43,707 nucleotides of DNA. Origin: a virus. The notes below the pieces were generated by a model. That model had not been told where the DNA came from, ran no database searches, and saw only the letters and a list, made by a program, of their open reading frames with translations. The translations under genes were made by a program, and so were the position numbers. Within the stretch, counting starts at the first letter, position 1; the number at the start of each line of letters is the position of its first letter. The DNA lies in UHGV virus genome UHGV-0360526; one strand, given 5' to 3'. Positions 4,098 to 41,400 of this stretch are shown here, piece by piece.

Positions 4098-4135
4098 CCC
4101 TCTCTCCGTTTGGAGAGAGGGAGTATTTATTTTTA
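4098..4135 (+). terminator. rho-independent terminator
   Basis: Stem ccctctctcc-gttt-ggagagaggg followed by tatttatttttacg. Confidence 0.75.
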
Positions 4136-4190
4136 CGCTTTCGTGTCTAATTATGCACACGTAAACAAAATTAATTGAGGAACAGCTTAA

Positions 4191-4526: not shown

Positions 4527-4812
4527 TACCGACGAAACGAATTTACAGCGCTTGCAACGGGCACTAACTGCACCGCTAGGTGGCGAGATTCACGAACGTT
4601 GGATAATTGCGAGGGTGGTAGAAATTGACTATTCTCAGGATCAGTTACTGTTAAACAACTGCTCGTCGAACGTACCTTTCACGCTACCACGCGCCGTATT
4701 CCGTCTTACGCCCAACGTTGATGAAATACTGACTATTGACAGGAAACTTCTATCGATAGAGCTTCAGCATTTCCCGCTACCTGGTAAGTCGGTTAATATT
4801 GCGCTGTCCTAA
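4504..4812 (+). CDS. hypothetical protein (start uncertain, 4492 or 4504)
   Basis: ORF 4492-4812 overlaps upstream gene; internal ATG at 4504 reduces overlap. Confidence 0.4.
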   Translation: MSNQNHTNTDETNLQRLQRALTAPLGGEIHERWIIARVVEIDYSQDQLLLNNCSSNVPFTLPRAVFRLTPNVDEILTIDRKLLSIELQHFPLPGKSVNIALS

Positions 4813-4831
4813 TGACAGTCTAAAAAACTTA

Positions 4832-4862
4832 AGATATATTTCATCTATGTGAGAATTCTCAC
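4832..4862 (+). promoter_or_regulatory. conserved promoter-like motif (AGATATAT..TT.C.TA.G) plus 5' hairpin, copy 1
   Basis: aagatatatttcatctatg followed by hairpin gtgagaattctcac, 24 nt before ATG 4886; same motif and hairpin arrangement recur at 18688 and 23073. Confidence 0.45.
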
Positions 4863-4885
4863 TTAACTAAATGGAGTAATCTAAA

Positions 4886-5155
4886 ATGGGTAAGATTTAT
4901 ATTGTTGAGAAACGTGCGGGTAATGTTCTTTCCTATTACGAAGAAGGTAAACCTGAGAAAATTAAAACACTCAAACTCGACGGATTTGATGTGAAGAGTT
5001 TACGCAAGGGTGTGAAGATTACCTTTAAAGGTCTGACTCGCGTAAGTAACTTACACATTGTTAAGGCCGATGGTACGATGGTTGCGTTAGCACCTGTCAG
5101 TGCTGCGAAAACGACAGCAGGTCGTGGATGCTACGGTAGCAGTCGTAAGATTTAA
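4886..5155 (+). CDS. hypothetical small basic protein (monocistronic unit)
   Basis: 89-aa ORF bracketed by promoter-like motif upstream and terminator downstream. Confidence 0.6.
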   Translation: MGKIYIVEKRAGNVLSYYEEGKPEKIKTLKLDGFDVKSLRKGVKITFKGLTRVSNLHIVKADGTMVALAPVSAAKTTAGRGCYGSSRKI

Positions 5156-5161
5156 GCAGTG

Positions 5162-5200
5162 CCCCTCTCTCCGTTAGGAGAGAGGGTACTTTTATTTTTC
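5162..5200 (+). terminator. rho-independent terminator
   Basis: Stem cccctctctcc-gtta-ggagagaggg followed by tacttttatttttc; stem nearly identical to terminator at 4098. Confidence 0.75.
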
Positions 5201-6220: not shown

Positions 6221-6266
6221 TCTTTTTTACAACTGCGGCTATTTTAATGATTAGGAGAATATAGAG

Positions 6267-10887: not shown

Positions 10888-13800
10888 ATGGCTAAAGCGG
10901 TAAAGAAAATTCGTTTACACGATTTACGTCCGTACACCGGCGATATCGGTGAAGGCGTTTTACTTTTTTCGAAAGACGAAAGGGATTATCAGTTACCTGT
11001 CCGAGAGATTGTTGCGGATATTGACACCGTCAGAAACGCGGTTGCTGACGCACAAACGGCTGCAGCCAAATCGCAACAGTCTGCAACAGAAGCTACGCAA
11101 GCAAAAGACTTAGCAGAAGCAGCGAAGCAAGAAACTGACACGTTAGCTTCCACCATTAGCGAGCAAGCGAAAACCGTTGCTACTAAAACTGCTGAGGTTA
11201 GCAAAAAACACGCTGAAGTTTTAGCCGCGAAAACTGCCGTAGATACCGTATCACAATCGGTAAATGAGAAAGCTCAAGCTGTTGCCACAAGCGAACAATC
11301 GGTGACGGCCGCAGTGGCAGATGTAACTAAGAAAGCAGAAACGGTTACGCAAAAAGCCGGGCAAGTACAACAGACGGCTACCAGTATCGCAAATACCGCA
11401 GCTTCAGTTGAGGCCAGTAAGGGCGCAGTGGAAAAGGTTGCTGCGCAGGTCACGAAAGATAAAGAAAGCTCAGAAGGCGCAGCTACGCGCTCGGAATCAG
11501 CTGCACTGCGTGCGGAGAAAATCGCTGCACAGGGCTTAATCGACGCTAGTACGACTGGTAAAGGTATCGTTAAACTTAACAATACCCTGACTAGCGAATC
11601 CGTGACGGAGGCTGCTACACCGTCTACAGTTAAGCAGTTGAATGACGAACTACAGTTAAAGGCTAACAAACATTCGCCGAATTTTACGGGTAAGCCGACG
11701 TCACCAACACCCCCGAAAGATTCAAACGACACGAGCATCTCCACAACGGCTTGGGTGCGTGCCGCGATTGCGGAATTGGTTGGGTCTTCACCTGAAACGT
11801 TAGATACCTTAGCGGAATTAGCCGAGGCGTTAGGTAATGACCCTAACTTCGCGACTACGATTACTGAGAAACTTGCGCAGAAGCAACCTATCAGTCCGCT
11901 ACTCACCGCTATTGCCGCAGTCACATCCGCAGCAAACAAGCTCCCCTATTTCACCGGTGCTAATAAAGTCGGATTAACTGACTTTACAGAAACAGCCAGA
12001 ACCCTGTTAGCGAAAGGGACAACTGCGGATATCATCAATTTCTTGGGATTAAAGGCCACTGTAGATAAAGCGAATGGCGCGTTACAGAAAAACTCTAACG
12101 GCGCTGATATCCCAGATAAAGAAACGTTTGCCCGCAATATCGGCCTATCGCCTGACACCTATCTGCGTTTCCGTGGCGAAATGCCTCTAGATGCTGATAT
12201 TAACACATTTGCTCCAAATACCAATTACACAGGAACGTGGGCTAAGTCGACATCAACCAATGCGTCGATGGCAAAACACTTCCCAGAAGACGGTGCGGTC
12301 GGTTATCTGGAAGTGTATAAAGCCGGTAATTACAGCGGTGCGCAACGTTTTACCTGTCGTAATGGTAACGTGTACAACCGTATGTTGTCAGGTGCGTGGA
12401 ATGGTGCCAATGGACCCTGGTCACCGTGGAGAATGGTAACTACTGGTGTACGTCCGTTATCTACCTCTATAGACTTGAACTCTCTGGGTGGCGCTGAGCA
12501 TATGGGTAACTGGCGAAACTCGTCCAGTTCGCTGGCTGTTTTTAGCAGACATTACCCTGAAGAAGGTGGTGGCGCGCAAGGCGTACTAGAAGTAATGGAA
12601 GGTGGTCTTTTCGGACGGTTGCAACGATACACCACACGTCGTGGTACGATGTATGTTCGTGGTTTGACCGCAACATGGGATTCATCAAACCCGCAATGGG
12701 AAGATTGGATTCAGGTTGGTTATCAGACTGACGGTGCTTTCTTTAAAGCCAATTTTAACGATCTCGTTAAACCGGGACGTTTCAGTGTCACTGGTGAAGC
12801 AACTAATGGTCCACTTACCGGTTCTTCTGGTGAAACCATATTAGGCGTTTGTGAAGTTACCTTACGCTTAGACGGTACAGGGGTCGAACAGAATTATACT
12901 ACATACGGTACGGGTGTAGAAACTAAAGGTCGTAAATTCCAACGTATCCGTACGGGTAACGCTTGGAGTGACTGGCGTGAGGTTTTCACATCGTATTCGC
13001 TTCCGCTGGTATTAGGTATCGGCGGTGAACGTGCGAATGTTGATCCTTTAGACTGGCAAACCTATGACTTTAAACCGGGTGAGTTAATCTGTACGCCGCT
13101 TAACACCATGAAAAACATTCCTGCGGGAATGGATTGGGGTGTTATTGACGGTAACTTAGTTAGCATTCTGGTTGGTCCATCAGATGGCGCATCCTCAGGC
13201 CGGAGTATGTTGGTTTGGCGTAGTACGGTGTCTACTGCCAACTATCGATTCTTTGCAGTACGTATCGCTGGTGAGAAAGGTAGTCGTACGATTACGCCAC
13301 GACAGATGCCTGTATTGAATGCAGCACACACCTGGGCAGAAAAACAGACCTTTGCAAAAGGGTTAGCAGGCGAGTTAACAGGCAATGCTTCAACCGCAAC
13401 GAAATTAAAGACCGCACGTAGAATTGGTGGAGTCGCTTTCGACGGTAGTGGTGATATTAACCTCCCAGGTGTTAACCAACAGGGCAATCAAAACACCACG
13501 GGTAATGCTGGTACAGCCACTAAACTTCAAACCGCCAGAAATATTAACGGTGTGAGGTTCGATGGTTCTGCTGACATCAACATCAACACTCTGGTGGGCC
13601 GTGGTCGGGTTACTGCTCTATCCGGATCAAACAAAGGTACGCCCGGTATTCAGATGTACGAAGTTTACAATAACGGTTATCCGACCGCTTATGGTAACTT
13701 GCTGCATTTGGGCGGTTCTACCGCAGTGGGTGAAGGTGAACTGTTAATCGGTTGGTCGGGCACGAGCGGTGCGCACGCACCCGTTTATATTCGTAGTCGT

Positions 13801-15486
13801 CGAGACACTAACGATGCACCGTGGTCAGATTGGGCACAAGTTTATACTGCCCGTGACAGTATTCCTGGTGTAAATGCTACCGGTAATCAAGATACTACCG
13901 GCAACGCCGCTACCGCGACGAAACTGAAAACCGCTCGCAGAATCGGCGGCGTTACCTTTGACGGTACTGGGGATATCAATTTACCAGGGGTTAACCAGCA
14001 AGGCAACCAGAATACGACAGGTAATGCAGCAACCGCTACCAAGTTACAAACAGGACGTAGGATCGGTGGTGTGGTTTTCGATGGGACGAAAGACGTTAAT
14101 CTTCCTGGAGTAAACCAAGCCGGTAACCAACCGACTACGGGGAATGCTGCGACTGCGACTAAGCTCCAGACTGCACGAAATATAGGTGGCGTAGCTTTTG
14201 ATGGCACTAAGGACATCAATTTACCTGGCGTAAACCAGACGGGTAATCAGTCGACCACCGGAAACGCGGCCACTGCAACAAAGTTGCAAACTGCAAGAAC
14301 CATCAACGGTATTGCGTTTGACGGCACTAAAAACATCGAAATAACGGCTGAGAGTTTAAATCTTGGTCAAACTGTAGAATTGGCCGGTGGGTCATTGCAG
14401 AAGAAACAGAACGGTGCCGATATTCCAGATAAAAGGAAATTCTTACGAAATGTTGGTGCCCCGAACACAACAACCATATCTTTTAATGGTGGTGCCGGAT
14501 GGTTCAAACTGGCAACTGTAACGATGCCACAAGCCAGTTCCGTGGTTTACATAAGCATGATTGGCGGTGCAGGGTTTAACGTTGGTTCCCCGCATCAAGC
14601 GGGTATTTCTGAGCTGGTTCTGCGCGCCGGGAATGGAAATCCAAAAGGTATCACTGGTGCTTTATGGCGACTGACCTCAGTCGGCTTTACTAATTTTGCA
14701 TGGGTGAATACATCTGGTGACACCTACGATATTTATGTTGAAATAGGTAATTACGCCACGGGTGTTAACATTCAGTGGGATTACACCAGTAACGCCAGCG
14801 TAACGATCCATACAACGCCAAGTTATACGGCTAATAAACCAGCAGGACTAACAGACGGAAACGTCTATCTGATTTATAGCACACACAACAAACCTAACGC
14901 TGGTGACATCGGTGCATTACCGTCAGGGGGCGGTACTATAGGTGGCGATTTAACCGTTAACGGTAAATTGGTCACTAAGTACCCTGATTTTCGAATCGCT
15001 TACGGCAACTACGGCTTTATGTTACGTAACGATGGTGCCAATACCTATTTCTTAGTAACCGACGCCGGACAAGCTGCAACGGGTTCCTGGAACGGACTAC
15101 GTCCGTTGTATTTTAATAACGCTAACGGCCAAGTAACCTTTGGTCATAACGTTACTGGCAGCGGTAACGGTTCGTTTAACGACGTACAGATTCGTTCTGA
15201 CCGTCGTAACAAACGTAATCTGGTGAAACTGGATAAAGCTTTGGATCGGTTAGAGTTACTAACCGGTTATTTGTACGAAATTCAGCATCCGGATGACGGT
15301 TGGCAAACCTCTGTAGGTCTAATTGCTCAAGACGCATTAGAAGCGTTACCTGAACTTGTGTCTGAGGATGATGATGCCATTTCAGGCGAAAAACGTTTAC
15401 GTCTAAATTACAATGGTGTTATTGCGCTGTTAGTAGAGGGTATGAAGTCTCTTCGCCGAGAGCTTAAAGAGCTTAAGGAGAAATAA
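10888..15486 (+). CDS. long tail fibre protein with tandem fibre repeats and C-terminal intramolecular chaperone (peptidase S74-like) domain
   Basis: 1532 aa; Ala/Thr/Gln-rich coiled-coil-like N-terminal region; six ~40-aa repeats (GNQxTTGNAATATKLQTARxIGGVxFDGTxDINLPGVNQ); C-terminal SDRRNKRN...GLIAQD...LRLNYNGVIALLVEG resembles the autoproteolytic chaperone domain of phage fibres/endosialidases. Confidence 0.8.
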   Translation: MAKAVKKIRLHDLRPYTGDIGEGVLLFSKDERDYQLPVREIVADIDTVRNAVADAQTAAAKSQQSATEATQAKDLAEAAKQETDTLASTISEQAKTVATKTAEVSKKHAEVLAAKTAVDTVSQSVNEKAQAVATSEQSVTAAVADVTKKAETVTQKAGQVQQTATSIANTAASVEASKGAVEKVAAQVTKDKESSEGAATRSESAALRAEKIAAQGLIDASTTGKGIVKLNNTLTSESVTEAATPSTVKQLNDELQLKANKHSPNFTGKPTSPTPPKDSNDTSISTTAWVRAAIAELVGSSPETLDTLAELAEALGNDPNFATTITEKLAQKQPISPLLTAIAAVTSAANKLPYFTGANKVGLTDFTETARTLLAKGTTADIINFLGLKATVDKANGALQKNSNGADIPDKETFARNIGLSPDTYLRFRGEMPLDADINTFAPNTNYTGTWAKSTSTNASMAKHFPEDGAVGYLEVYKAGNYSGAQRFTCRNGNVYNRMLSGAWNGANGPWSPWRMVTTGVRPLSTSIDLNSLGGAEHMGNWRNSSSSLAVFSRHYPEEGGGAQGVLEVMEGGLFGRLQRYTTRRGTMYVRGLTATWDSSNPQWEDWIQVGYQTDGAFFKANFNDLVKPGRFSVTGEATNGPLTGSSGETILGVCEVTLRLDGTGVEQNYTTYGTGVETKGRKFQRIRTGNAWSDWREVFTSYSLPLVLGIGGERANVDPLDWQTYDFKPGELICTPLNTMKNIPAGMDWGVIDGNLVSILVGPSDGASSGRSMLVWRSTVSTANYRFFAVRIAGEKGSRTITPRQMPVLNAAHTWAEKQTFAKGLAGELTGNASTATKLKTARRIGGVAFDGSGDINLPGVNQQGNQNTTGNAGTATKLQTARNINGVRFDGSADININTLVGRGRVTALSGSNKGTPGIQMYEVYNNGYPTAYGNLLHLGGSTAVGEGELLIGWSGTSGAHAPVYIRSRRDTNDAPWSDWAQVYTARDSIPGVNATGNQDTTGNAATATKLKTARRIGGVTFDGTGDINLPGVNQQGNQNTTGNAATATKLQTGRRIGGVVFDGTKDVNLPGVNQAGNQPTTGNAATATKLQTARNIGGVAFDGTKDINLPGVNQTGNQSTTGNAATATKLQTARTINGIAFDGTKNIEITAESLNLGQTVELAGGSLQKKQNGADIPDKRKFLRNVGAPNTTTISFNGGAGWFKLATVTMPQASSVVYISMIGGAGFNVGSPHQAGISELVLRAGNGNPKGITGALWRLTSVGFTNFAWVNTSGDTYDIYVEIGNYATGVNIQWDYTSNASVTIHTTPSYTANKPAGLTDGNVYLIYSTHNKPNAGDIGALPSGGGTIGGDLTVNGKLVTKYPDFRIAYGNYGFMLRNDGANTYFLVTDAGQAATGSWNGLRPLYFNNANGQVTFGHNVTGSGNGSFNDVQIRSDRRNKRNLVKLDKALDRLELLTGYLYEIQHPDDGWQTSVGLIAQDALEALPELVSEDDDAISGEKRLRLNYNGVIALLVEGMKSLRRELKELKEK
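13381..14361 (+). repeat. in-frame tandem coding repeats (~120 nt / 40 aa) within the tail fibre gene
   Basis: Two copies at 13381-13590 and four at 13882-14361 encode GNQxTTGNAATATKLQTARxIGGVxFDGTxDINLPGVNQ; copies differ mainly at synonymous positions. Confidence 0.8.
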
Positions 15487-15489
15487 AAA

Positions 15490-15993
15490 ATGGGGGTAGC
15501 ATCTGGATGGGTCGGTTCTTCGGCCAAGAACGAAACGGGCGAACAATGGATGAGCGCTGCTGGTAGTAAATTAGGACTGGGTAGACCTTTTATGATGAGT
15601 CAAATGGTGGGAAGATCTATGGGCTGTAAAATTGCAACCGCTGCATATAGCGATTCTTTAGGTAAGAAATGGGGCGCGGTAGGACCAAGCTGGCCGTTAA
15701 ACCAGAAAAATCAGGGAACCATTCAAAACGCTGGTAACTGCGGGGTGGGAACTTTAGTAGGTATCGAGTTACAGTTAACGACGGTAGTTGCTAACGCAAA
15801 GCCTACTTTAGCGGTTTACTTACAAGGCGGCAGAACCTCTAACATTACCGTAAATTTAGGTGGCAACACCTGCGCGCTGACCTATCAGCAGGTTATTAAC
15901 GGACAGCATTATTACTGGACTAATAACATCAGCGCTGCGTTCCAAAACGTGATGAAATCAACAGGCGCACTACGTGATTTGAGAATTAGCTAA
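15490..15993 (+). CDS. hypothetical Gly-rich protein downstream of tail fibre (possible fibre accessory or adhesin)
   Basis: 167-aa ORF starting 4 nt after the fibre stop; Gly/Asn-rich; function inferred only from position. Confidence 0.4.
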   Translation: MGVASGWVGSSAKNETGEQWMSAAGSKLGLGRPFMMSQMVGRSMGCKIATAAYSDSLGKKWGAVGPSWPLNQKNQGTIQNAGNCGVGTLVGIELQLTTVVANAKPTLAVYLQGGRTSNITVNLGGNTCALTYQQVINGQHYYWTNNISAAFQNVMKSTGALRDLRIS

Positions 15994-16080
15994 TTATTTT
16001 TCAAGTGGAAGCGCTTGAAATCGTAATCGGGGGGATGTTTTAAAAGACTTTCTACGTCCCCCTAAACTTAAAGGTGAGTT

Positions 16081-18015
16081 ATGATGTTGGTGCGCGATAT
16101 TAAAGATTACACCGAACTAACAGCATACGCGTTAAATTCGTTGTTAACACTTGACAAACCAGAAATATTCGACGAATCCGTCACGATGACGGTAGACCAA
16201 GAAACGAACTATGATTACGTTGGTCAAGTTACTGGTCGTGTTTCTGTGGCTAGTCCCACTGAATATAAAATTGCGATGTATACCTATACAACGGGAGAGT
16301 ACGCGCAAGGTGAATCACCATTAAACGAATCAGGTGAGTTTAATTTTAAACGAACATGGCCGGGGACAAAACAATTTCGTTTAATTAGAATTGCTGATGG
16401 CAAATGGATTTCTACGTTAGAGTTCCCATTGTGCATACGTAGTTACCATATGCCAGAAAACGCGGACCCTGAAACGATCAGGATTATGAAAGATCGTTGT
16501 TATACTTACGATCAGGCTGTTGCTACTCTTGCATTAATGGCCTACGGTCATGAAAAGGTAGAACAGTTTGTAAAAGGTCTTTTAGCGCTGGTCAATGAAG
16601 ACGGTGGTGTTAAATTCTACGTAAACCGACTTTCGGCTAAATCTTCGCGAAATTATTACCGTATGGGCAACGTCGCGTGGGTACTTTACGCTTTAGCTTT
16701 TTATCTTGAAAAATTTCCTGCCGGAAATCTAGCGGCACAGGTTCATGAAAAATTAACACTTTCCTTAACCTGGCTGGAAACTTATAAGGTAACGCAGGAG
16801 ACAGATCGCCGCAAAGGTTTATATCTTGGTGGAAAGGGTCGTTTTGTTACTACCGAATCAGGCGAACGTGTTTTTGAAGAAGACTACGTTGCACCTTTTG
16901 CGGCTTTAGAACATCAGGTAGATATTTGGTTCCTGTTCGAATTACTAGGGCGCGTCGGTTTTGATGCATACCAACAAAAAGCAGCGGACTTCGGTAATAG
17001 AATAGTAGAAGCTTTTTGGATGGAAGACGAAGGACGTTTTCGTCAGGGTGTGAGAGAAACAGAAGATGATAACGCAGCTGCGTTAGATCAGTCCAGTTGG
17101 GGTGGGCTATTTGCGGCCAAATTTAAACCAGAGTACGCCGAACGTTGTCACGCTTTTATGGAGAAATTTCGTTCGGAAACCTCTGAGTGTCGTGGCTACA
17201 CACCATACAAAACCGAGTTTGGTTACCCTACTGCTAAAGAAGGGGTGTGGGTTGAAGGTGCCGCCGGTGTTGCGTTATTCGAACGTCAGTTAGGAAATGA
17301 TAAACGTGCTGTTGAGATCATTAACGACTTAGATGTTCTTTTATCAGAATACGGTTATCGTGATTCTTGCGATGATCCTACCTACGATACGCTGCCGCCG
17401 TGGTGGTCAACCACAAACACTGCATGGGTGCTTTTAGTCTGTAAGCCAAGTAATTTTTGGCTTGTAGATAAGCCTCCTTTAACGGAGAGATATAATCCGC
17501 AGAATAAATTTTTACCAGATATTTCATTAAACTCTTTAAATCTTGTAATTTCGTTAGTGAATCACGATTTAAAAACAGATTACACGGAGTCTGATGTTGA
17601 AATCAGCAAGATTTCACTTAGCACGGAAGAAAATCGTGACACAACAGCGATAATGGAAATAAAACGTCCTAATAAACGGTCGTTACAGATCTATTACAAC
17701 CGTTTAACCGCAGCGCGGTGGTTAAACCAGCAACCTATTCTGGTAAAGGTCACCGGTAACGGTTTTACTACACGCGATCTGATCGACGGAATTAACGCGG
17801 CTTGTGGTTGTAATTTACAACCCGACGATCTTACTGACGACACATTTACCGTAGGGAAAGACGCTGTAACGTTACAGGTTTCACCCAACTCGTTAGGTTA
17901 TAAAGGTCAATTCTCCGTTCTGGTTTTCGGTAACGATGAAGAAGCCGCTGTGGTAAAAGACAACGATTTAATCGTTACCGCAGATAACCGTGTCTTAACA
18001 TTCGGAGGTCACTAA
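16081..18015 (+). CDS. putative (alpha/alpha)6-barrel glycoside-hydrolase-like virion protein with C-terminal fibre-docking-like domain
   Basis: 644 aa; central region has repeated helix-pair signatures (YDQAVATLALMAYG, NVAWVLYALAFY, LDQSSWGGL, TNTAWVLLV) typical of six-hairpin glycosidases; C-terminus homologous to ORF 10121-10681; enzyme assignment is tentative. Confidence 0.35.
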   Translation: MMLVRDIKDYTELTAYALNSLLTLDKPEIFDESVTMTVDQETNYDYVGQVTGRVSVASPTEYKIAMYTYTTGEYAQGESPLNESGEFNFKRTWPGTKQFRLIRIADGKWISTLEFPLCIRSYHMPENADPETIRIMKDRCYTYDQAVATLALMAYGHEKVEQFVKGLLALVNEDGGVKFYVNRLSAKSSRNYYRMGNVAWVLYALAFYLEKFPAGNLAAQVHEKLTLSLTWLETYKVTQETDRRKGLYLGGKGRFVTTESGERVFEEDYVAPFAALEHQVDIWFLFELLGRVGFDAYQQKAADFGNRIVEAFWMEDEGRFRQGVRETEDDNAAALDQSSWGGLFAAKFKPEYAERCHAFMEKFRSETSECRGYTPYKTEFGYPTAKEGVWVEGAAGVALFERQLGNDKRAVEIINDLDVLLSEYGYRDSCDDPTYDTLPPWWSTTNTAWVLLVCKPSNFWLVDKPPLTERYNPQNKFLPDISLNSLNLVISLVNHDLKTDYTESDVEISKISLSTEENRDTTAIMEIKRPNKRSLQIYYNRLTAARWLNQQPILVKVTGNGFTTRDLIDGINAACGCNLQPDDLTDDTFTVGKDAVTLQVSPNSLGYKGQFSVLVFGNDEEAAVVKDNDLIVTADNRVLTFGGH

Positions 18016-18635
18016 TGGCTGAACTGGTAGGAAAGGTGCGCATTCATGAACTGGAGACGCTTTCAGAAGACATCACGGGTGTAGTAGTCTTAGCGTCTAA
18101 GGAACAAACTGAATACCAACTCCCGATTGAGAAATTAGGGGGTGGTGAGGTTACAGTGAGCCCGTCGGCGAATAACATCCTTAAGTCTAACAGCGATGGG
18201 TTGTTTGTTGACGGCACTCATCCGATTGTACCAAAAATGGATGCAAAAACCTTATCGGGAAATATGGTGGTAGAAAAAACGTTGACAGGTGGTGCGGTAA
18301 TCTGCAAAACAACAGTTGACGTTAATAATAGACTGGGGATTTCGCAATTATCTGGAGTGTCAATTTATACCCAGTGTCTGTTGGAAAATAAATTGGTTTA
18401 CCTGGCAGAAGACGGCAGTATTATTGATGCGTACTTCTACATTAGTAATACAAAGAACACAGCCAGTACAATAACCCACACCATTCGGGTTGTCTTAGCG
18501 AAAGTACCTTCTAAAGTTGTCGATATCACCGATTTGTCTGAAACTGAGGTGCAGTATCAGGATGCTAATTTGCCTGTTAAGATCGTTATTAAGCATCTTA
18601 CAGGGACAACACTTTCCCAGAACGGAATGAAATAA
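18015..18635 (+). CDS. short tail-fibre-like protein sharing the N-terminal domain of the 1532-aa fibre
   Basis: 206 aa; N-terminus MAELVGKVRIHELETLSEDITGVVVLASKEQTEYQLPIEKL aligns with fibre N-terminus MAKAVKKIRLHDLRPYTGDIGEGVLLFSKDERDYQLPVREI; TAATG overlap with upstream gene. Confidence 0.55.
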   Translation: MAELVGKVRIHELETLSEDITGVVVLASKEQTEYQLPIEKLGGGEVTVSPSANNILKSNSDGLFVDGTHPIVPKMDAKTLSGNMVVEKTLTGGAVICKTTVDVNNRLGISQLSGVSIYTQCLLENKLVYLAEDGSIIDAYFYISNTKNTASTITHTIRVVLAKVPSKVVDITDLSETEVQYQDANLPVKIVIKHLTGTTLSQNGMK

Positions 18636-18641
18636 ATTTTA

Positions 18642-18687
18642 GGTAGTAGGGGCTTAGCCCCTACTACCTTTCTTTTTTTATTTTTTC
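18642..18687 (+). terminator. rho-independent terminator
   Basis: Stem ggtagtagggg-ctta-gcccctactacc followed by tttctttttttattttttc. Confidence 0.8.
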
Positions 18688-18732
18688 TCAGATATATATT
18701 ACCTAGAGGAGAGCGAAATTTACATTCGCTCT
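18688..18732 (+). promoter_or_regulatory. conserved promoter-like motif plus 5' hairpin, copy 2
   Basis: tcagatatatattacctag followed by hairpin agagcgaa-atttaca-ttcgctct; 28 nt before ATG 18760. Confidence 0.45.
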
Positions 18733-18759: not shown

Positions 18760-19611
18760 ATGTATCACCCGTATTATCTCCCGCACATTCTAGCAAATAG
18801 GGACCCCGGTTATTACTACGAACAAACAAAAGGATCTTTTAATCGGCTCTACATTCGCGAATTTAATATCGATGAAATGACGGACGACCAGTATCTGGAG
18901 TATCTAAAAGACCTTTACGGTTTTTCAAAATCGAATAAAGGTGACTTTGGACGTTCCGCAGTCATTAGAGACGGCGAATATCGTCATTTGGCTAAGCCTG
19001 TTACGTACCCTATTGTTACACGCGCTTATACATCGGATAGGCAATATATCGCTGAGCTAAAATTTCCATTGCGGATAGACGGGCCCCAAATTAGCGCTAT
19101 AGAAGTAGAGATTCAACCAATTGCTGAAGACTATATTGAAGACTACTTCAAGAAAGCTAAAGACGTGCTCGAGGAGGGTTTAAGCTACTCTGAAGAAGGA
19201 ACGATTTGTCTTCTCTCGTTACTCTCGAAGACTTACGTCACAGCAAATTTTCGTATCTCCGATTCCAGTAACTACAATACACTTACCCCCTCTAAAACAA
19301 AACCTGTTTATTGGGACGATCGGTTAGTCGACAGACAACGCTGGCTTACTATCTTAGATATGGTAGAATTCGAGCCTCCTAAACACACCGAAGACAATTT
19401 TATTTTATTGCACAACTTCGAACCGATCTATATCCCGACGCATTTTGATCAAGCCTTACGTCATCGGTTGAAGTATGTGTTGGAATTACGGTACGGAAAG
19501 ATAAACGGACTAACCTGTTCCGGTGAATTGGGCGAAGAAGAACGCGAGAAGATAAAAATCGTGTTTGATAAATTAGTTGAAGATTACATTAAGAAGGAAG
19601 GGCAATTATGA
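18760..19611 (+). CDS. hypothetical protein
   Basis: 283-aa ORF with strong RBS aaggagg. Confidence 0.6.
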   Translation: MYHPYYLPHILANRDPGYYYEQTKGSFNRLYIREFNIDEMTDDQYLEYLKDLYGFSKSNKGDFGRSAVIRDGEYRHLAKPVTYPIVTRAYTSDRQYIAELKFPLRIDGPQISAIEVEIQPIAEDYIEDYFKKAKDVLEEGLSYSEEGTICLLSLLSKTYVTANFRISDSSNYNTLTPSKTKPVYWDDRLVDRQRWLTILDMVEFEPPKHTEDNFILLHNFEPIYIPTHFDQALRHRLKYVLELRYGKINGLTCSGELGEEEREKIKIVFDKLVEDYIKKEGQL

Positions 19612-22790: not shown

Positions 22791-23061
22791 AACTATTGTA
22801 TTTTGTCAAAACGGTGATGTAAAACAATACCGGGGCAAGAAGTTAATTCGTACGTTAGAATACCGAGAAGCAAAACGTTTTGTTGAAGAGTGTGCGTGGT
22901 TGATGCACTACGAAGGGAACTATCGCGCCATCTTAGAAGCACCGCGTTTAGAACGTGCAGTTGCGCAGATGGCGATAGGTAATCCTAAGAACTGTTACCT
23001 GGCCCGTAAGCCAAAATACCTACAGCGTGTCTCGCTAGGTAGTTTTATTGCAGGATTTTAA
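22780..23061 (+). CDS. hypothetical protein (start uncertain; listed ORF begins 22732)
   Basis: In-frame ATG at 22780 with RBS gggag; overlaps upstream stop. Confidence 0.4.
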   Translation: MKRETIVFCQNGDVKQYRGKKLIRTLEYREAKRFVEECAWLMHYEGNYRAILEAPRLERAVAQMAIGNPKNCYLARKPKYLQRVSLGSFIAGF

Positions 23062-23072
23062 TAAAAATAATT

Positions 23073-23113
23073 TCAGATATATATTACCTAGGTGAGAGTA
23101 CAAAAGCTCTCAC
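23073..23113 (+). promoter_or_regulatory. conserved promoter-like motif plus 5' hairpin, copy 3
   Basis: tcagatatatattacctag identical to copy at 18688, followed by hairpin gtgagag-tacaaaag-ctctcac; 29 nt before ATG 23142. Confidence 0.45.
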
Positions 23114-23141
23114 TTAACGAACCATTTTAGGAGAATATACC

Positions 23142-23408
23142 ATGAACTTCACTAAAGCTGATTATGCTAAAGAATTCGTTTCTAAAGAAGATTACAAGTT
23201 TACTGTTGAACTAGACTACGTATTAACTGAAGATGAAAAAGATGCGCTGTATAAAGCGTTCCGCAAACACTTCGGTGCGTTGTTCTTTATGGGTTTCCGT
23301 AAAGACTCTATCGATATTGGCTATACTGTCGCAGTACGTACCGATGAGGAAATGTTCAATATGGTGTGTGAAATCGTCAGTACCATTACTGCTAAACGTG
23401 CGATTTAA
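23142..23408 (+). CDS. hypothetical small protein (monocistronic unit)
   Basis: 88-aa ORF with RBS aggag, bracketed by promoter-like motif and terminator. Confidence 0.6.
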   Translation: MNFTKADYAKEFVSKEDYKFTVELDYVLTEDEKDALYKAFRKHFGALFFMGFRKDSIDIGYTVAVRTDEEMFNMVCEIVSTITAKRAI

Positions 23409-23430: not shown

Positions 23431-23462
23431 AGGGTAAGGGATTCTCTTACCCTATTATTTCG
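23431..23462 (+). terminator. rho-independent terminator (moderate)
   Basis: Stem agggtaaggg-attct-cttaccct followed by attatttcg. Confidence 0.55.
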
Positions 23463-23489: not shown

Positions 23490-24266
23490 ATGAAAACTGT
23501 TGAGTTTAAAAATAGCAGTCTTTGGGCATACACGCACATCATTACGAGTTTCCTGAAAAACGTTACTTCGCACCTCGCTTATCAGTTTTGTGGAAATGAG
23601 CTCACTATCGGTGGTTTTAACGAGGAAGAATTAAAACGTGCAAAAGAGTTCATTGACGATGTTCTTCATGGCGACGCGACGTGTTTAGTTGCGAGTTACG
23701 TTGCTAAAGACAAAGGAAGATTAAACATCATGGCAATCTTCCGGGCGCTCTCCGAAAAAGTATACGAAGTTGAGAAGGTTAGTCATGGCGTTTATATTGT
23801 TTACTTTAAACGTTCAGCGGAGAAAAACACTGATAAACTTCTGGAGTATTTCGACTGTAACCCAGGGGAAGGTATGGATGTCTATACGCTCGGTTATGAT
23901 GGGGTACCTCACCGGAATAACCTTATTCGTATTGACGAACCTTTTTCAGTCAATGATAACTCCACGCCTATAGAGATGGTTCTGGTACACAAAGATCGTT
24001 TCGCGCATTACGATTCTGATACTGTTCAACGTGTCCTGAACAACGTTAATATTCAGTTTTCACAAACCGAGCACCTGGTACGTGCTTGTGTTAGGTCTAA
24101 TGGCACAACATCGTTTTTCCTCGAACGTCAAATCGTTTGGCAGACTTATCTGGCTTTGATGGAAGAACTCGATAGGATTGAACCAGTTCAGGTTGGTACA
24201 AATTGCTTATATTGGATAAAAACAAAGGGGTTCAAGAATGAAGACGCTCAATTCAGATTTGCGTGA
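23490..24266 (+). CDS. hypothetical protein
   Basis: 258-aa ORF. Confidence 0.55.
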   Translation: MKTVEFKNSSLWAYTHIITSFLKNVTSHLAYQFCGNELTIGGFNEEELKRAKEFIDDVLHGDATCLVASYVAKDKGRLNIMAIFRALSEKVYEVEKVSHGVYIVYFKRSAEKNTDKLLEYFDCNPGEGMDVYTLGYDGVPHRNNLIRIDEPFSVNDNSTPIEMVLVHKDRFAHYDSDTVQRVLNNVNIQFSQTEHLVRACVRSNGTTSFFLERQIVWQTYLALMEELDRIEPVQVGTNCLYWIKTKGFKNEDAQFRFA

Positions 24267-25833: not shown

Positions 25834-25867
25834 AGGGGTGACAATTCACCCCTCTATTATTGTTTTT
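25834..25867 (+). terminator. rho-independent terminator
   Basis: Stem aggggtga-caat-tcacccct followed by ctattattgttttt. Confidence 0.7.
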
Positions 25868-25885
25868 ACCTAAAGGAGTATTAAA

Positions 25886-32362: not shown

Positions 32363-32910
32363 TCATCGTCTCCTTTAATCAACCCTAATTCGATTAACAA
32401 TTCAAAATCGATATGACGGAATCTTGTGTCGAAGTCCGATTCCCAATCGATACGGATACCCTGGCATTCTTCTGGCGTTAGCTCAGGAAAAATCACGGTA
32501 TTAAATTTCTCTCGCTCATCGTAAAACCCATCAATCGGTGAGTTCGGGTTACGTGTTGCGAAGATAGTAATGCCGGGGAAGGACAATGCCAACACAGTGA
32601 TAGATTCTGCGCTGGGTTCGCTTAAAGAGCGGCGTAGAAACGCAATTTTGTGACGTGGGAAATCCAATACCCGTTCTTCAAACCCTGGGTTACGTTTTTC
32701 AATTTCCGCGACCGACAGGTCAGTAAGTTCGGTGCAGTACATTGGGATGATTACAGTCACGCCGTGACGAATCAGTAAGCGTTTTACGTCATCGGTAAAA
32801 TCTTCACCGTTAATCACCACATAACAACCGAATAGCTTACTGTTTTCCAGAAACTTATCCAGAAGTCGAATTCTACGCTTCGTAATATTGTTGATCAGAA
32901 TTGGTTTCAT
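32338..32910 (-). CDS. hypothetical protein
   Basis: 190-aa ORF; start overlaps the 3' end of the radical SAM gene. Confidence 0.5.
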   Translation of the reverse strand: MKPILINNITKRRIRLLDKFLENSKLFGCYVVINGEDFTDDVKRLLIRHGVTVIIPMYCTELTDLSVAEIEKRNPGFEERVLDFPRHKIAFLRRSLSEPSAESITVLALSFPGITIFATRNPNSPIDGFYDEREKFNTVIFPELTPEECQGIRIDWESDFDTRFRHIDFELLIELGLIKGDDECLLLVKA

Positions 32911-34195
32911 CTTTGGCTTCTCTTAATAATTTTTCCTTTTGGGCACGTTCACGAACACAGCGTGGGCAATAACACATGCTCGTGTCGTGGAACGCTTTTG
33001 CTGACGTCGTACCCATCTTCTGTTTCCAGTATTCCGCCACCATCAGTTTCGCTGTCGTCCAGCCACACTGACGACGTTCAGCGTGATACGCTTTACGGTC
33101 TTCTAACGTTCCTTCCCCGTTCTCGTAAGAAGCCGCCGCACAGCTACCACAAGCGTGTTTCATCGGACAACCTAAACAGGTCTCTGGGTAGTTGGTATAT
33201 TGCGTTTGAATCTCTTCTAACAATTTACCGTTGTCCAGACTGACGAATTCCCGACCTACCAACTCAAACACCGCAGAACGCGACGTTACCGTTGACATAA
33301 AGCGGTTACAGCCAAAGATCTTACGGTCAAATCCTAAGCACGTCATGTGGGTTAACGTCCCGCAGAACGGACGTAAACGTTCTGGGTTCAACCGTACAGT
33401 GTCATTATACAGTAACTGGTCACGCCAGTTCGGTTCCCAAATCGTATCGAAATCCAACCCTTCTGGAATGATGTGCGATAAGATATTACGTGGATTGGTG
33501 TGTAATCCTTTTTCAACCCAATAATCTATCACATCCATCATCTGTAAAGCGATTGATGTCGCCATGCTACGCGGCATAACGTCTTCGAAGGTTACGTTCC
33601 CAGAAATTGTCCCACCGCCAGTAATGTCAATTAATGACTTCATCCCCGCAGCATAGAACGGCAGTGTTTCTAACGTAAAGGTCGCTTTTACGCCGAGTTC
33701 TGCAATACCAACCTCTTTTAAGTAATTATAGCCACGTACTGCGGCTTCGTAAGAACCCTGACGCGTCGTTGTGAAGATACGATAGCGGTCATGGGATTCA
33801 GGTAAACCATCAATCGAAACCCCAACCGAAAGTTTGTCTTTCCAACGTTCTACAATCTCACGGTTCAACGGACGATCTAACAGCGTTCCGTTCGTGGAGA
33901 TACTAAACATAAACGGTCGGTTGTGTTCTTTACACAACTGCTCAGCGGTTTCAAACGCAGCCAGCAGCAGTTTAGGCTGCATGAACGGTTCACCACCGAT
34001 AATGTCGATAATAACTTCGACATTCGGTTCGTTTTTATCACGTTCAAAACAGGCGTGTAAGAAATCAACAATGTCAGCCGCTTTGTTGTTACGTGGGTAC
34101 TTACGTTCGTAGCAATATTCGCAGTCCAGGTTACACGAAAGGTTGGTTACGATCTGATACGTTAACTGCTTAGGGAATTCATTTACTTGACTCAT
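32873..34195 (-). CDS. radical SAM enzyme with C-terminal SPASM-like domain (peptide-maturase-like)
   Basis: 440 aa; CNLDCEYC (CxxxCxxC) near N-terminus, GGEP SAM-binding motif, C-terminal Cys clusters CGTLTHMTCLGFDRKIFGCNRF and CLGCPMKHACGSCAAAS. Confidence 0.8.
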   Translation of the reverse strand: MSQVNEFPKQLTYQIVTNLSCNLDCEYCYERKYPRNNKAADIVDFLHACFERDKNEPNVEVIIDIIGGEPFMQPKLLLAAFETAEQLCKEHNRPFMFSISTNGTLLDRPLNREIVERWKDKLSVGVSIDGLPESHDRYRIFTTTRQGSYEAAVRGYNYLKEVGIAELGVKATFTLETLPFYAAGMKSLIDITGGGTISGNVTFEDVMPRSMATSIALQMMDVIDYWVEKGLHTNPRNILSHIIPEGLDFDTIWEPNWRDQLLYNDTVRLNPERLRPFCGTLTHMTCLGFDRKIFGCNRFMSTVTSRSAVFELVGREFVSLDNGKLLEEIQTQYTNYPETCLGCPMKHACGSCAAASYENGEGTLEDRKAYHAERRQCGWTTAKLMVAEYWKQKMGTTSAKAFHDTSMCYCPRCVRERAQKEKLLREAKDETNSDQQYYEA

Positions 34196-35102
34196 TTGCC
34201 GCCCCTCTATTACGTCCTGCCATCACTACGCGACGAATATATTCGTACGCCTCTACACCGATAGAGAAGGCCAGTTGGTTACATCCCGATTCCAGAACGT
34301 TAGGTGCATTCTGGAGTTGGTGCTCACCACCGTCTGCATTAATCCAAAGACTTTCGCTGCAAACGTTACACCCTTCTTCAAACACTTTACTTACTGTAAA
34401 GCCGCATTCACGACCATTTACTACATTCAGTCGTTCAATGTTGTCCTGAACCTGATAGTAGCCGTAAATAAAGTTCATGACGTGGTCAGGCGATAAAGGT
34501 TTTGGCATTTTCGCGTCTAAGAGTAACGTCATTGCACGGAAACCGTAATGGTAAATCGCGCTGTGCAGCTGAATAATATCTTCGTGCCAGCGTTTGTCCC
34601 CTAAACGGTCCCGTGTCAGGACACCCCAAGTCTGGACATTATCCAGCTCGTAGATCGTTTCCAGTGCTTCGTAACAGCCTTCGTCAATAAAGCGCATAAA
34701 CGGGCGCTCAGACGACTTAAACCCATCGATGCTAACGTAGACATTGTCAAACTGTTTTAGCAACGGGAGATGCGATTTACGCATCTTTAAGCCATTGGTA
34801 TACAACTGGTGTTTGAGTTCTGGACGAATCACTTTTAATTCGTCAACAAACGCCTCAATTTTACGGGTTGCCAGTAATGGCTCACCACCCGTCCACTGAA
34901 TTTCGGTAATGGTTGGATTAGCTTCCAGCGCTTCCAAAATTCGCTCACGTTGAAACTCTCGCGGAGAATCTTCACGATTCATGTAATAGGCTCCACCGCA
35001 GAAGCTACAATCCAGGTTACACTTGGACGTAGCGACTACGGACAATACGGTGGGTTTATCGTATAAACGATTCGATAACCTTGGTTCTGCATTGGTTGTC
35101 AT
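34179..35102 (-). CDS. radical SAM enzyme (second, shorter paralog-like)
   Basis: 307 aa; CNLDCSFC (CxxxCxxC), GGEPLL motif, C-terminal Cys residues ECG..GCNVCSES..GCNQ; 17-nt overlap with downstream rSAM gene. Confidence 0.75.
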   Translation of the reverse strand: MTTNAEPRLSNRLYDKPTVLSVVATSKCNLDCSFCGGAYYMNREDSPREFQRERILEALEANPTITEIQWTGGEPLLATRKIEAFVDELKVIRPELKHQLYTNGLKMRKSHLPLLKQFDNVYVSIDGFKSSERPFMRFIDEGCYEALETIYELDNVQTWGVLTRDRLGDKRWHEDIIQLHSAIYHYGFRAMTLLLDAKMPKPLSPDHVMNFIYGYYQVQDNIERLNVVNGRECGFTVSKVFEEGCNVCSESLWINADGGEHQLQNAPNVLESGCNQLAFSIGVEAYEYIRRVVMAGRNRGAANESSK

Positions 35103-38481: not shown

Positions 38482-41400
38482 TTAAGATGTAAACATAAGA
38501 TTGAACTGGAGCTTATCGATATCGCGGGTTTGTGCTGGGTTAACCGCATCGTACGTGGTTGCCACGTAGACCGTTAATGTCCCGTCAGCAAACGAGGTTT
38601 TCACCGGTGGCGTAGTCCCTGTTTGTCCGTCGGTTACAATGACGACAGGTTGAGCCGGGAGTTGATGGAACTGACCCTTAACCGCTTTATACACCAAACC
38701 AGATTGTGCTGCTAACTCCGTGTCGGTATACACGATAAACGGTGTGTCGATATCTGTCTGTTTAATGACAGTGTTCGACTCAACGTCAATCAACTGAACA
38801 GCACCGAACTTCGTACGGTAGCTATCGTATTCATTTTTTGGAATGACAAACGTAGCATGTATACGGACTTCTTCGGCTGGCTTAAATCCGGCGTGTTCTT
38901 TTTCCAGATAACTGTTAGCGGTTAACGTTACTGTCTGTTCAGCCATCGTACCGCCAGACTGGTTTAACCCGTAACGAACTTGGGTTATACCTGTCGGAGC
39001 CGCAAGCCTGATTTTTAGTCTACGATTAGCGGTGCCGGGATTACCAGGCACTTTAACACGCAGACTCAGCGCCAGATATGCATTCGCACCGGTAGTCGGT
39101 TTCGTATACGCGCCCAACCACTTCATGTTCGCAGTTGCCGCTTGACTGTTCTCAGAAGCAGTAGCCGCAGCAACGTTTGCAGCAACCGCTTTCTGCCAGA
39201 ACTGGTCAGCGCAGTTTTCATACGCTACTCTACCGATACTTTTATAACCTGCGTAGGTTTCCTGTATCGGTAGCTTGGGTCGTGTTGTAACCCCGTTCAA
39301 CGCATTCCATTTCTGACCATCGACATACCCCGCACCATTACTCGCAGATGCCGTAGGGGCTTTCAGTGGTTGGTTAACTAAGGTTTGAAGTGGACCCGTT
39401 TTTCGATCGTACGCCGCTGCAACGTCGTGCTGATCTCTAACGGCAGCATGTTCTTCTAATTCACGAACCCTGCCTAGTCGTTTCACTTTATCGATGTTGA
39501 TAGCAACTATGCGCTTTTTATCGGTTGTAACTGTACCAACAAATAATCGCGAAGTCGTATCCGGCAGCTTTTCCAGACCGATCTGATATTGAGCCTTCGA
39601 ACCTACAAGAGCAGCATGAACATAGAACGTCTGGTTAGCATGGTTTTCTGGGAATTCGTTGCTTAAATCCACCGACCACGTCGGTAATGTATAGCTATTA
39701 CTACCGAAATCTAACCTGACCTCTTCCGTCAAGTATAGAATCCAACCTTCCGCGGTTTCCACGCCTGCGATAATAACTGCCTGCCCCGCTGTTGAGAATG
39801 TGGTATCATTAACGAACTCTTCGACTGTGTATGCGTTACCTGAACAGAAAACGCGGTCAGCTTTAGAGAAAATTCGTGCCATCTTGTCCCAATTACCCGC
39901 ACCCATGTAACAACCAGATTCTGGGTTGTGGGCAGGAGCCATCTGACGCAACTGTGACTTACCGGGAACTCGCGTCCAACCCGACCCAGGGTTAAAGGTA
40001 TACTTCGCAGCGTAACCCAAAGCATTTAGGTCCCCGATATTCCGTATTGTCAGCGTATAAGGTAGCCATAGACCGAAGTTTACACCGTCGGCAGAAGCAA
40101 AAATTGGCTGGCCTACACGTCGCGTTTTATTACCCGCTTCTTCCCTCAGAGACTGATAACTTAAGCCGTAATCAAGGTCTAAGAACCAATCTACCAGCTT
40201 AAAGGTTGCAGAATTAAAACGTAGATAACCGTTTTCTTTAGTCGGACTCACCATGAAGTAATAGATGTCGAGGACTCGACGTCCGTTACTCAAGGTTTTC
40301 ATGCATGAGACTTGTAATAAGTCGAACTCACAAACAGTGTTAATGCCTAGCAACCAGAGTGCAAACAACGCGTTGCCGCTTTGGTGTGCTGCGCTGATGC
40401 GCTCGTTCGCGTAACCGTTTGCTTGGCCAGATGGTGCACCATCGACAATCATCCTAATCATTTTCTGGCGATCCGCTTCCTCTAACGTCAGCCGTTCTGA
40501 TGACAGGGCAAAGTTACCGTAGATGTTCCGATATGGAAAGGTTTCCGCTTTCGTCAAATACCAACCATTTAACTGACCGTGACGCTCCTCAGGAGTCATA
40601 CATGCAGCCATACAGCTTAACTGTTCGTAAAGGGTTGCATCAACTTCTCGACGGTTGTTGTTCGGGCCATAACCGCTATATCCGGGAACGTCATAAGGTT
40701 TACTTGGGTCAACTTCTACTTCGATCGTATAGCGGTTGCGCGGATTGGATAACCATACTTTGTTTGAGCCACCGATACCAACAGGATGAGAAAGACCGAT
40801 GGTATAGATAGAACCACGACCTTTATCCCAAGTAAATGTTGCTTCGCCTGAGGTATTGTTTGGGTTATCATAACGCAGATAATCAAAAAACTCTTTGCCT
40901 TGCGTACTTTTAATAGTAACATTCGGCATCTGGTCCGCATCGTTAATCTGCCAGCAGGAAAGCATCATTCCTGAGACATTAGGTTTAGCATACGTCGCAA
41001 AACAACGATTGTTTGCTTGGCCGCCACCCCACTTACGACTGGTTTCTACAGTTGAGCCATCCGCGTACGATAGTCTGGTAGCATCAACCTTAATGGGGAA
41101 ACGTTCGGCACCCTCTAACGTAACTCTGCCCGTTAACGTATCGATTGTGAAACTTGTTGACCATTGACGGAAATTAATCGTCGTACCGTCGGCAGCCGCA
41201 AACCACACGCTGGGTACATGGTTCACACGAATCACGCTGTCGCGTACCGCACAAGCATGGTTACATTCTGGACCGTGAACAAAGTTGTGACCGATTGTCC
41301 ATTTAGCCCGTGCCTCTGGCGGGTAATACGTAAAGAACTGACCAGTCTGCGACTCTTCGGTCTTCTGGCCAATTCTTAGGCAGAGGTTATCTCCGAATTG

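Follow-up and report, generated by a model that had tools for sequence, protein, structure and literature searches.

Two Probable Short Early Transcription Units with Virion RNA Polymerase-Type Promoters in an SPN3US-Like Jumbo Phage

The virus genome UHGV-0360526 provides a stretch of 43,707 nucleotides (the window hereafter), in which two small genes on the plus strand, here named A and B, each lie between an upstream motif with a hairpin and a downstream terminator-like hairpin. A preliminary description of this sequence had proposed both genes as self-contained, insulated, and strongly expressed units of the sort used for host takeover or anti-defence. Here, we have analyzed these units together with their relatives, and suggest that A and B are probably short early transcription units of an SPN3US-like, nucleus-forming (phiKZ-related) jumbo phage, whose promoters would be read by the RNA polymerase carried in the virion. 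Both open reading frames (ORFs) were located where the preliminary description had placed them, at 4886-5155 (89 amino acids, aa) and 23142-23408 (88 aa), each with a Shine-Dalgarno sequence.

Unit A begins with a promoter-type element on the plus strand (4832..4850), which is composed of the 13-mer AGATATATTTCAT (4832-4844) and a 6-nt spacer, CTATGT, and places the predicted start at G 4851. A perfect 14-nt palindrome, GTGAGAATTCTCAC (4849..4862, plus strand; 5-bp stem, 4-nt loop), covers positions -2 to +12 of this predicted start, and the upstream hairpin that it belongs to folds as RNA at -7.3 kcal/mol (z -2.65). A Shine-Dalgarno sequence, GGAG (4873..4876, plus strand), can be read 9 nt 5′ of the ATG of gene A (4886..5155, plus strand), whose 89-aa product has an isoelectric point (pI) of 10.05 and is an orthologue of SPN3US gp112 (phrog_12339). 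The terminator (5163..5199, plus strand) consists of CCCTCTCTCCGTTAGGAGAGAGGG followed by the T-run TACTTTTATTTTT; its hairpin (5163-5186) lies 7 nt past the stop codon and has a G+C-rich 10-bp stem with seven G-C pairs (-24.2 kcal/mol, z -6.8). It has the features of an intrinsic terminator and should be efficient. Among relatives, the promoter element is unchanged in seven contigs of the same lineage, the sole change in the palindrome is A to G in the loop, and the terminator stems are unchanged while their loops vary.

In unit B, the consensus 13-mer AGATATATATTAC (23075-23087) and the spacer CTAGGT form the promoter-type element (23075..23093, plus strand), with a predicted start at G 23094. 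The 5′ hairpin (23092..23113, plus strand) pairs GTGAGAGT with GCTCTCAC in an 8-bp stem (-12.6 kcal/mol, z -3.45); relatives have exchanged the loop tacaaaag for tcagtt and have retained and lengthened the stem. The Shine-Dalgarno sequence AGGAG (23129..23133, plus strand), again read from the sequence, stands 8 nt 5′ of the ATG of gene B (23142..23408, plus strand), which encodes 88 aa (pI 5.1) and has a G+C content of 37.8%, compared to 44.3% for the window. The terminator-like hairpin (23431..23462, plus strand) is formed by AGGGTAAGGGATTCTCTTACCCT (hairpin 23431-23453, 22 nt past the stop codon) and is followed by an interrupted T-tract, ATTATTTCG. With five G-C pairs in its 10-bp stem (-13.7 kcal/mol, z -3.9) and this broken tract, it resembles an intrinsic terminator in part and is probably leaky; in relatives, base changes at the apex of the stem make the pairing better. 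The hairpin/T-tract terminators that had been proposed within 6-25 nt of both genes are thus present at 7 and 22 nt, the former being strong and the latter having a weak T-tract.

A third copy of the motif (18690..18732, plus strand) contains AGATATATATTAC, the spacer CTAGAG, a predicted start at G 18709, and an 8-bp hairpin (18710-18732) that folds as RNA at -13.4 kcal/mol (z -2.30) and shows a compensatory change from C-G to T-A in the relatives L018, L019, and L047. It comes after a strong terminator (18641-18669) and heads a multi-gene operon whose first gene lies at 18760-19611 (283 aa); therefore, the motif is not restricted to single-gene units.

No cultured phage was matched at the DNA level by 5 kb of the window in a megablast search, and relatives are visible at the protein level only. 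A 1727-aa protein encoded on the minus strand (38482-43665) is 56% identical to a protein of Erwinia phage Asesino and ~49% identical to one of Salmonella phage SPN3US, and both the relative position of its gene and the surrounding regions are syntenic with these two phages. In addition, the matches of protein A come from SPN3US-like jumbo phages only (Seoulvirus, Erskinevirus, and Machinavirus). On account of these identities, the synteny, and the distribution of protein A, sequence comparison assigns the window to an undescribed enterobacterial SPN3US-like, phiKZ-related nucleus-forming jumbo phage of ~225 kb. Exact copies of proteins A and B are present on many contigs of 221-228 kb, some of them from gut metagenomes and others from assemblies that carry the label Salmonella enterica, Shigella flexneri, or E. 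coli. A scan of the window against Rfam found no family.

The element common to positions 4832 and 23075 comprises AGATATAT, 9 nt, the inverted repeat GTGAGA...TCTCAC, and TTAAC, so that the conserved motif and hairpin noted earlier upstream of A and B were borne out. Generalized as AGATATATATTAC-(6N)-G, the motif has three copies in the window, all on the coding strand. A weight matrix trained on SPN3US sites alone and then applied to the window gave scores of 43.6 (B), 35.8 (18690), and 14.9 (A), with nothing else above 8, and matrix hits of at least 14.9 occurred at a mean of 0.007 per shuffled window (n = 300 shuffles). The plus strand of the complete SPN3US genome contains 16 copies of AGATA[GT]AT.T.A[CT], which lie upstream of genes that run in the same direction; six of these copies read AGATATATATTAC(C/T)TAGGTGAG and are identical to both the 18690 and the 23075 site of the window. 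In SPN3US, gp34-gp35, which are genes of the non-virion RNA polymerase, have one copy immediately ahead of them, and the remaining genes behind the motif encode mainly hypothetical proteins and one helix-turn-helix (HTH) protein. Several subclasses (TATAT-TAC, TAGAT-TAT, and TAGATGT-AT) can be distinguished. The conserved stretch runs beyond a -10 hexamer, from AGATA upstream through CTAGGTG downstream, and the sequence-based position +1 is a G in all 26 sites from the window, its lineage, SPN3US, and four other phages. A search for TATATTAC returned nothing informative, and a scan of IMG/VR with a degenerate motif yielded, among the matches listed, mostly chance matches in unrelated contigs; only the loci from lineage contigs were kept.

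Phages of the SPN3US-like and phiKZ-related groups encode two multisubunit RNA polymerases of their own, a virion (vRNAP) and a non-virion (nvRNAP) one (PMC7598289; PMC5105663). The best reference for the present motif is Bacillus phage AR9, whose early promoters, mapped by differential RNA sequencing (dRNA-seq) and by primer extension, conform to the consensus AAATATATATTAT-(6N)-G(+1) (PMC5312081; reviewed in PMC7598289). Since early transcription in AR9 is unaffected by chloramphenicol, i.e., independent of protein synthesis, these promoters are read by the injected vRNAP, and a transcription start site 6 nt downstream of the element is also conserved in phiKZ and phiR1-37 (PMC5312081). The window consensus, AGATATATATTAC-(6N)-G, agrees with the AR9 vRNAP promoter at 11 of 13 positions and has the same spacing and start base. 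Both are extended AT-rich 13-mers centred near -10, and the ~16 or more copies per genome (counted in SPN3US) are likewise co-oriented and precede nvRNAP genes, whereas the 5′ end reads AAATA in AR9 and AGATA here, and the last base here is C or T. The SPN3US gp35 protein is the nvRNAP beta' subunit (PMC5105663), and nvRNAP, which is encoded among the early genes, has to be produced by vRNAP (PMC10914365). The early promoters of 201phi2-1 precede hypothetical genes, as most motif copies in SPN3US do. In phiKZ, 201phi2-1, and AR9, on the other hand, the known motifs of the middle and late classes are short and different (TATG; AACA-(6N)-TA/G) and are not detectable bioinformatically (PMC7598289; PMC5312081). 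Considering the AR9-like sequence, spacing, and start G, the position ahead of the SPN3US nvRNAP genes, the hypothetical genes downstream, and the dissimilarity to middle and late motifs, we infer that the motif serves the SPN3US-like group as its vRNAP early promoter, with predicted starts at 4851 (A), 18709, and 23094 (B). Early expression is argued from the near-identity to the mapped AR9 promoter and from the position upstream of the SPN3US nvRNAP genes. The promoter-like motif of the preliminary description therefore appears, on this evidence, to be a genuine phage-specific promoter.

The hairpin follows the promoter in a characteristic way. Nine of the ten canonical 13-mer sites have a hairpin that begins at +1 to +3 and folds at -5.9 kcal/mol or below, compared to 8.7% of random G-initiated 32-mers from the SPN3US genome (binomial P ~3e-9, the ten sites not being fully independent, as some may be orthologous between phages). 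This signal is confined to the canonical subclass and to the +1 to +3 position; hairpin energy pooled over all subclasses is marginal (Mann-Whitney P = 0.056). Since the other subclasses (AGATAGATATTAT and similar) are mostly devoid of a hairpin, promoter recognition as such does not include it. The conserved initial sequence GAGAG makes up the 5′ arm, and the 3′ arm and the loop vary by site, with loops of 3 to 8 nt. Within the lineage, the leaders are near-invariant and differ by loop changes, by a small number of single-base differences located in the promoter spacer or close to the Shine-Dalgarno sequence, and by the one compensatory stem change, a pattern consistent with a 5′-terminal RNA structure in the message.

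In E. coli mRNA decay, structure at the 5′ terminus guards against RppH/RNase E-dependent degradation, and the ompA-type leaders of Emory, Bouvet and Belasco (1992) are reportedly 5′-terminal stem-loop stabilisers of E. coli mRNA. The leaders of B, of the 18690 operon, and of nine of the ten canonical sites share with these a hairpin 0-2 nt from the predicted 5′ end, behind which come an unstructured leader and then a Shine-Dalgarno sequence. They differ in that the 5′ arm here belongs to the conserved promoter and initial transcribed sequence, and in that the hairpin of gene A would fall mostly upstream of the predicted start. For AR9, phiKZ, and 201phi2-1, no description of a GAGAG initial-transcript hairpin like that of the canonical subclass was found.

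The architecture of unit A is kept across four genera of SPN3US-like phages. A promoter variant, gene A, and a strong terminator co-occur in SPN3US (gp112), Asesino (gp127), pEa_SNUABM_29, SPAsTU, and pEa_SNUABM_10, where the A orthologues have a TTTCAGATAGAT(G/A)T(T/C)AT element ~50 nt upstream and a strong terminator right after the stop codon. The variants AGATAGATGTTAT or AGATAGATATCAT precede the A orthologues in these five phages as well as in phiEaH2, in which the conserved promoter is separated from the A orthologue by an additional gene of 206 aa (gp034; L004, 798-1815); by comparison of these sequences, the putative early unit of phiEaH2 has accepted an insertion. The distance from the motif to the next strong terminator in SPN3US ranges from 0.36 kb (gp112 alone) to >5 kb. 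Single-gene units, in which a gene is flanked by a start site and a terminator, make up ~25% of the transcription units across six Pseudomonas phages including phiKZ (PMC10914365), and unit A is notable mainly for having stayed single-gene across genera.

With one promoter, one small ORF, and one terminator, units A and B resemble both single-gene units and moron-like cassettes. Unit B is additionally similar to the latter in being lineage-restricted and lower in G+C content (37.8% versus 44.3%). However, A is syntenic across four genera, neither unit has a terminator upstream, and the promoters are of the phage type and not of the host type. Judged by patchy distribution and atypical composition, gene A (G+C 42.2%, compared to 44.3% for the window) does not behave as a moron, being conserved and syntenic in four genera, whereas B, which is found in one lineage within a block lacking cultured-phage homologues, is compatible with such an origin.

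Because no terminator lies upstream of promoter A or promoter B, insulation is present on the 3′ side only. The next genes (from ~5211/5214 and from 23490) begin 25-36 nt past the terminator hairpins, and no recognisable promoter was found for either; they probably need read-through. Since the downstream genes have no visible promoter, both terminators may be attenuators that set a high ratio of the small protein to the downstream products. The earlier picture of self-contained, insulated units thus holds for their 3′ terminators and has to be relaxed for their upstream side, for their probable coupling to the genes behind them, and for the weak terminator of B.

Taken together, the following mechanism seems probable for A and B. 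The vRNAP, carried in the virion and injected with the DNA, would read AGATA(T/G)AT(N)T(T/C)A(C/T), a 13-mer around -10, followed by 6 nt and G(+1), and would start at the invariant G (4851 in A and 23094 in B). The first bases of the RNA would then pair with a nearby complement to form a 5′-terminal stem-loop, which most likely shields the mRNA from RppH/RNase E 5′-end-dependent decay, a good Shine-Dalgarno sequence would drive translation of one small ORF, and an intrinsic terminator, strong in A and weak in B, would end or attenuate the transcript, such that the small protein is made early and in excess over downstream products. Early and probably strong expression of these genes is supported by the sequence, and the preliminary description was sound in reading a promoter, a gene, and a terminator with probable strong expression; the early class is where host-takeover genes lie.

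Several observations weigh against this interpretation. The 43.7-kb window contains no RNA polymerase gene, and the assignment to vRNAP therefore leans on relatives, i.e., the syntenic SPN3US and Asesino, which encode both kinds of polymerase. No transcriptomic or start-site data for any SPN3US-like phage were found in the literature reached. Units A and B sit amid tail-fibre and other structural genes. Promoter A is an off-consensus variant of the vRNAP-type early promoter that deviates at three of 13 positions, and one predicted early promoter of AR9 with a single mismatch was inactive (PMC5312081). The motif includes a -10-like TATATT, and A has a 10/12 match to a sigma-70 promoter. Finally, for the A orthologues of the window, Asesino, and pEa_SNUABM_10, the first base of the stem precedes the predicted +1 by 2-3 nt, which leaves 3-4 bp in the RNA; counted from the predicted +1, stem A of the window retains 3 bp at -2.2 kcal/mol. 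For A, either the start is shifted in the promoter variant, or the hairpin works in read-through RNA or in DNA.

These points bear differently on the alternatives. The motif might be an nvRNAP promoter (middle or late), or be read by both polymerases, with middle, late, or continuous expression, which would suit the location of the units in a region of tail-fibre, endolysin, and virion genes. There are precedents in the 'continuously expressed' AR9 genes that bear both promoter types (PMC7598289) and in the middle promoters of some 201phi2-1 nvRNAP genes; moreover, the off-consensus variant of A, kept across genera, might mark another class, and a downstream TCGAC(T/C)AT box in many SPN3US leaders could be a second promoter. 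Yet the known middle and late motifs are short and different, the motif described here fits the AR9 early consensus in sequence, spacing, and start base, and it precedes the nvRNAP genes of SPN3US, all of which makes this alternative unlikely; it concerns the variant promoter of A most. Recognition as a strong host sigma-70 promoter, by way of the -10-like TATATT and an AT-rich UP-like upstream region, is less probable again. Matches to such a promoter do exist at 4812-4840 (ATGACA-17-TATATT, 10/12) and 23058-23085 (TTAATA-16-TATATT, 9/12), with A/T-rich upstream flanks, but sigma-70-like hits are no commoner than in shuffled sequences (26 versus 33.8 and 29 versus 33.1), no -35 element is conserved across the sites, and the conservation far exceeds a -10 hexamer in an architecture equal to that of vRNAP promoters. 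In phiKZ, transcription is independent of the host polymerase (PMC7598289; PMC10914365).

It is also conceivable that the palindrome works as DNA, either as an operator bound by a phage repressor or activator or as a hairpin promoter element in the style of phage N4, given that GTGAGAATTCTCAC is a perfect palindrome, that GTGAGA is common to A and B, that the stems of A orthologues reach 2-3 nt upstream of the predicted start, and that an HTH gene lies behind one SPN3US motif copy. Nevertheless, the stems differ widely by site and the loops range from 3 to 8 nt while the position relative to +1 is fixed, pairing is preserved in relatives through loop replacement and compensatory change, and many motif copies are without any palindrome. 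In N4, the hairpin precedes the start, and the enzyme that reads it is an unrelated one with a single subunit. We therefore regard a role in DNA as very improbable. Chance likeness, or ORFs that are not genuine genes, might be suspected from the shortness of the ORFs and from the absence of a B homologue outside its own lineage. This possibility is negligible and effectively refuted by the conservation data: three matrix hits were obtained versus 0.007 expected, the protein sequence of A is conserved over several genera, B occurs in identical form on many contigs while its duplicated form keeps 26 invariant positions, and a Shine-Dalgarno sequence precedes both ORFs.

Structure prediction, which the preliminary description had named as a check, yielded a predicted OB-like barrel for A and a predicted ferredoxin-like fold of generic type for B. 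In the AlphaFold2 (AF2) model of protein A, residues 1-70 form an all-beta domain (predicted local distance difference test score, pLDDT, ~90) and the tail is disordered; the domain is predicted to be a small OB-like beta-barrel with a basic Lys/Arg tail. Orthologues have longer Lys/Arg-rich tails, and the family possesses 12-14 invariant columns over several genera. In Machinavirus-like phages, the domain is tandemly doubled, giving proteins of 170-202 aa (pEa_SNUABM_10, L006 1492-2031). SPN3US gp112 (YP_009153406; ACQ60_gp154; phrog_12339) shares with protein A 45% identity, the promoter variant, the terminator position, and the neighbours, and differs by its length of 101 aa with a longer Lys-rich tail. 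The equation of ACQ60_gp154 with gp112 follows from RefSeq locus numbers that reverse the original gene numbers (original = 266 minus the RefSeq number), a rule that was checked on gp75 (major head protein), gp244, and gp245. Protein gp112 was described as a non-virion protein of unclear essentiality (PMC5105663); gp112/protein A is possibly essential. Protein A had no Pfam hit and no significant PDB sequence match (the best being Mec-8, E = 0.77), and sequence comparison does not place it in a known OB-fold or cold-shock family, as cold-shock domain (CSD) ribonucleoprotein (RNP) motifs, for example, would. Because of the conserved, syntenic family, the OB-like barrel, and the basic tail, the model points to nucleic-acid binding rather than to an anti-defence moron, and protein A is most likely an early nucleic-acid-binding protein.

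Protein B has a predicted beta-alpha-beta-beta-alpha arrangement of a generic ferredoxin-like fold. It is identical on many lineage contigs, and its sole other relative is a 164-aa tandem-duplicated form in some lineage members, with 45-57% identity and 26 invariant positions. A tblastn search of phages gave no hit, a HMMER search over 1.84 billion representatives found its own lineage only, and no Pfam, PHROGs, or PADLOC family and no PDB sequence relative were found. Profile comparison with SPN3US gp125 and gp135, which lie behind similar promoters, revealed no homology. Since the proteins encoded at 23490-24266 and 18760-19611 have no match in cultured phages, the B locus is not comparable across genera. 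Protein B, which is acidic, predicted to be early, and lineage-specific, is a candidate host-interaction factor. As to the proposed anti-defence function, the Pfam, PHROGs, PADLOC, and PDB searches of A and B were uninformative.

Several other features were observed around these units. A twin of terminator A (4098..4121, plus strand) is identical to it at 23 of 24 nt and lies ~1 kb upstream; the twins at 4098-4121 and 5163-5186 share the sequence CCCTCTCTCCGTT[T/A]GGAGAGAGGG and flank a ~1-kb segment of variable gene content. In relatives of the lineage, this segment has one or two small genes of differing length ahead of gene A, and the repeat might mediate cassette exchange. T-runs that end in TTTTTAC and directly follow a terminator or precede a gene occur in the window at 649-742, 4122-4135, 6221-6235, and 25854-25870, and at 4122-4150 the TTTTTAC is followed by 6 nt and then by G and a small hairpin. 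These runs may be a degenerate or second promoter class, or mere terminator tails. The leader box TCGAC(T/C)AT is found ~10 nt 5′ of the Shine-Dalgarno sequence at SPN3US 65457, 94282, 114032, and 223320, and also at 57148, 167594, and 224199; it is present in the leaders of early promoters as well as at genes that lack the early motif. On the plus strand of SPN3US, 12 copies of TCGACTAT compare with ~3.7 expected, and the leader of gene B has ACGAACCAT at the equivalent place (23116-23124). This box could be a second promoter class or a translational element.

Two further SPN3US sites were noted. At 72486-72560, a copy of the motif sits right behind the gene for the major head protein; a Shine-Dalgarno sequence and an ATG come next (ggagacagtaATG), and no gene is annotated there in the record. 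At 165687-165746, an early promoter with a 5′ hairpin is followed 42 nt on by an intrinsic terminator (GGCTACCTTCGGGTAGCC and a T-tract) before the gene, an arrangement that resembles the short, conditionally terminated 5′ untranslated region (5′-UTR) RNAs of phiKZ. Upstream of the 18690 promoter, the tail-fibre/adhesin module of the window (10888-18635) is highly mosaic among otherwise near-identical lineage members (L012-L017, 1-6400), its variable parts being gp38-like adhesins, SASA/DUF6645, GDSL lipase, Caudo_TAP, and fibres of differing length. On the minus strand at 32873-35102, a radical S-adenosylmethionine (radical-SAM) gene (440 aa) is adjoined by a 307-aa ORF; at the syntenic position, SPN3US has two adjacent genes annotated as radical-SAM.

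The elements described here belong to a known kind, i.e., the vRNAP early promoters and early units of phiKZ-related jumbo phages. What may be new is the explicit consensus for the SPN3US-like group, the coupling to a 5′ hairpin, and gp112/protein A as a conserved early small basic protein. A bolder proposal, which we offer tentatively and consider improbable as a whole, is that the canonical promoter is coupled to the 5′ hairpin in a single module. In it, GAGAG would be selected for pairing with a downstream segment, which would single out a subclass of the immediate-early transcripts of nucleus-forming jumbo phages, either to withstand host RNases or to be handled selectively as long as the injected genome remains in the early infection vesicle, and protein A (gp112 family) would be an abundant early nucleic-acid-binding protein having an OB-like barrel with a histone-like tail. 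If this were true, the gp112 family would represent a new functional class, and if the hairpin stabilises mRNA, the promoter-hairpin module would be a compact, portable expression element. The promoter model (13-mer, 6 nt, G) lets early genes be read from the sequence in cultured and uncultured SPN3US-like relatives, and it singles out two small predicted-early proteins, the conserved non-virion gp112/protein A and the lineage-confined protein B.

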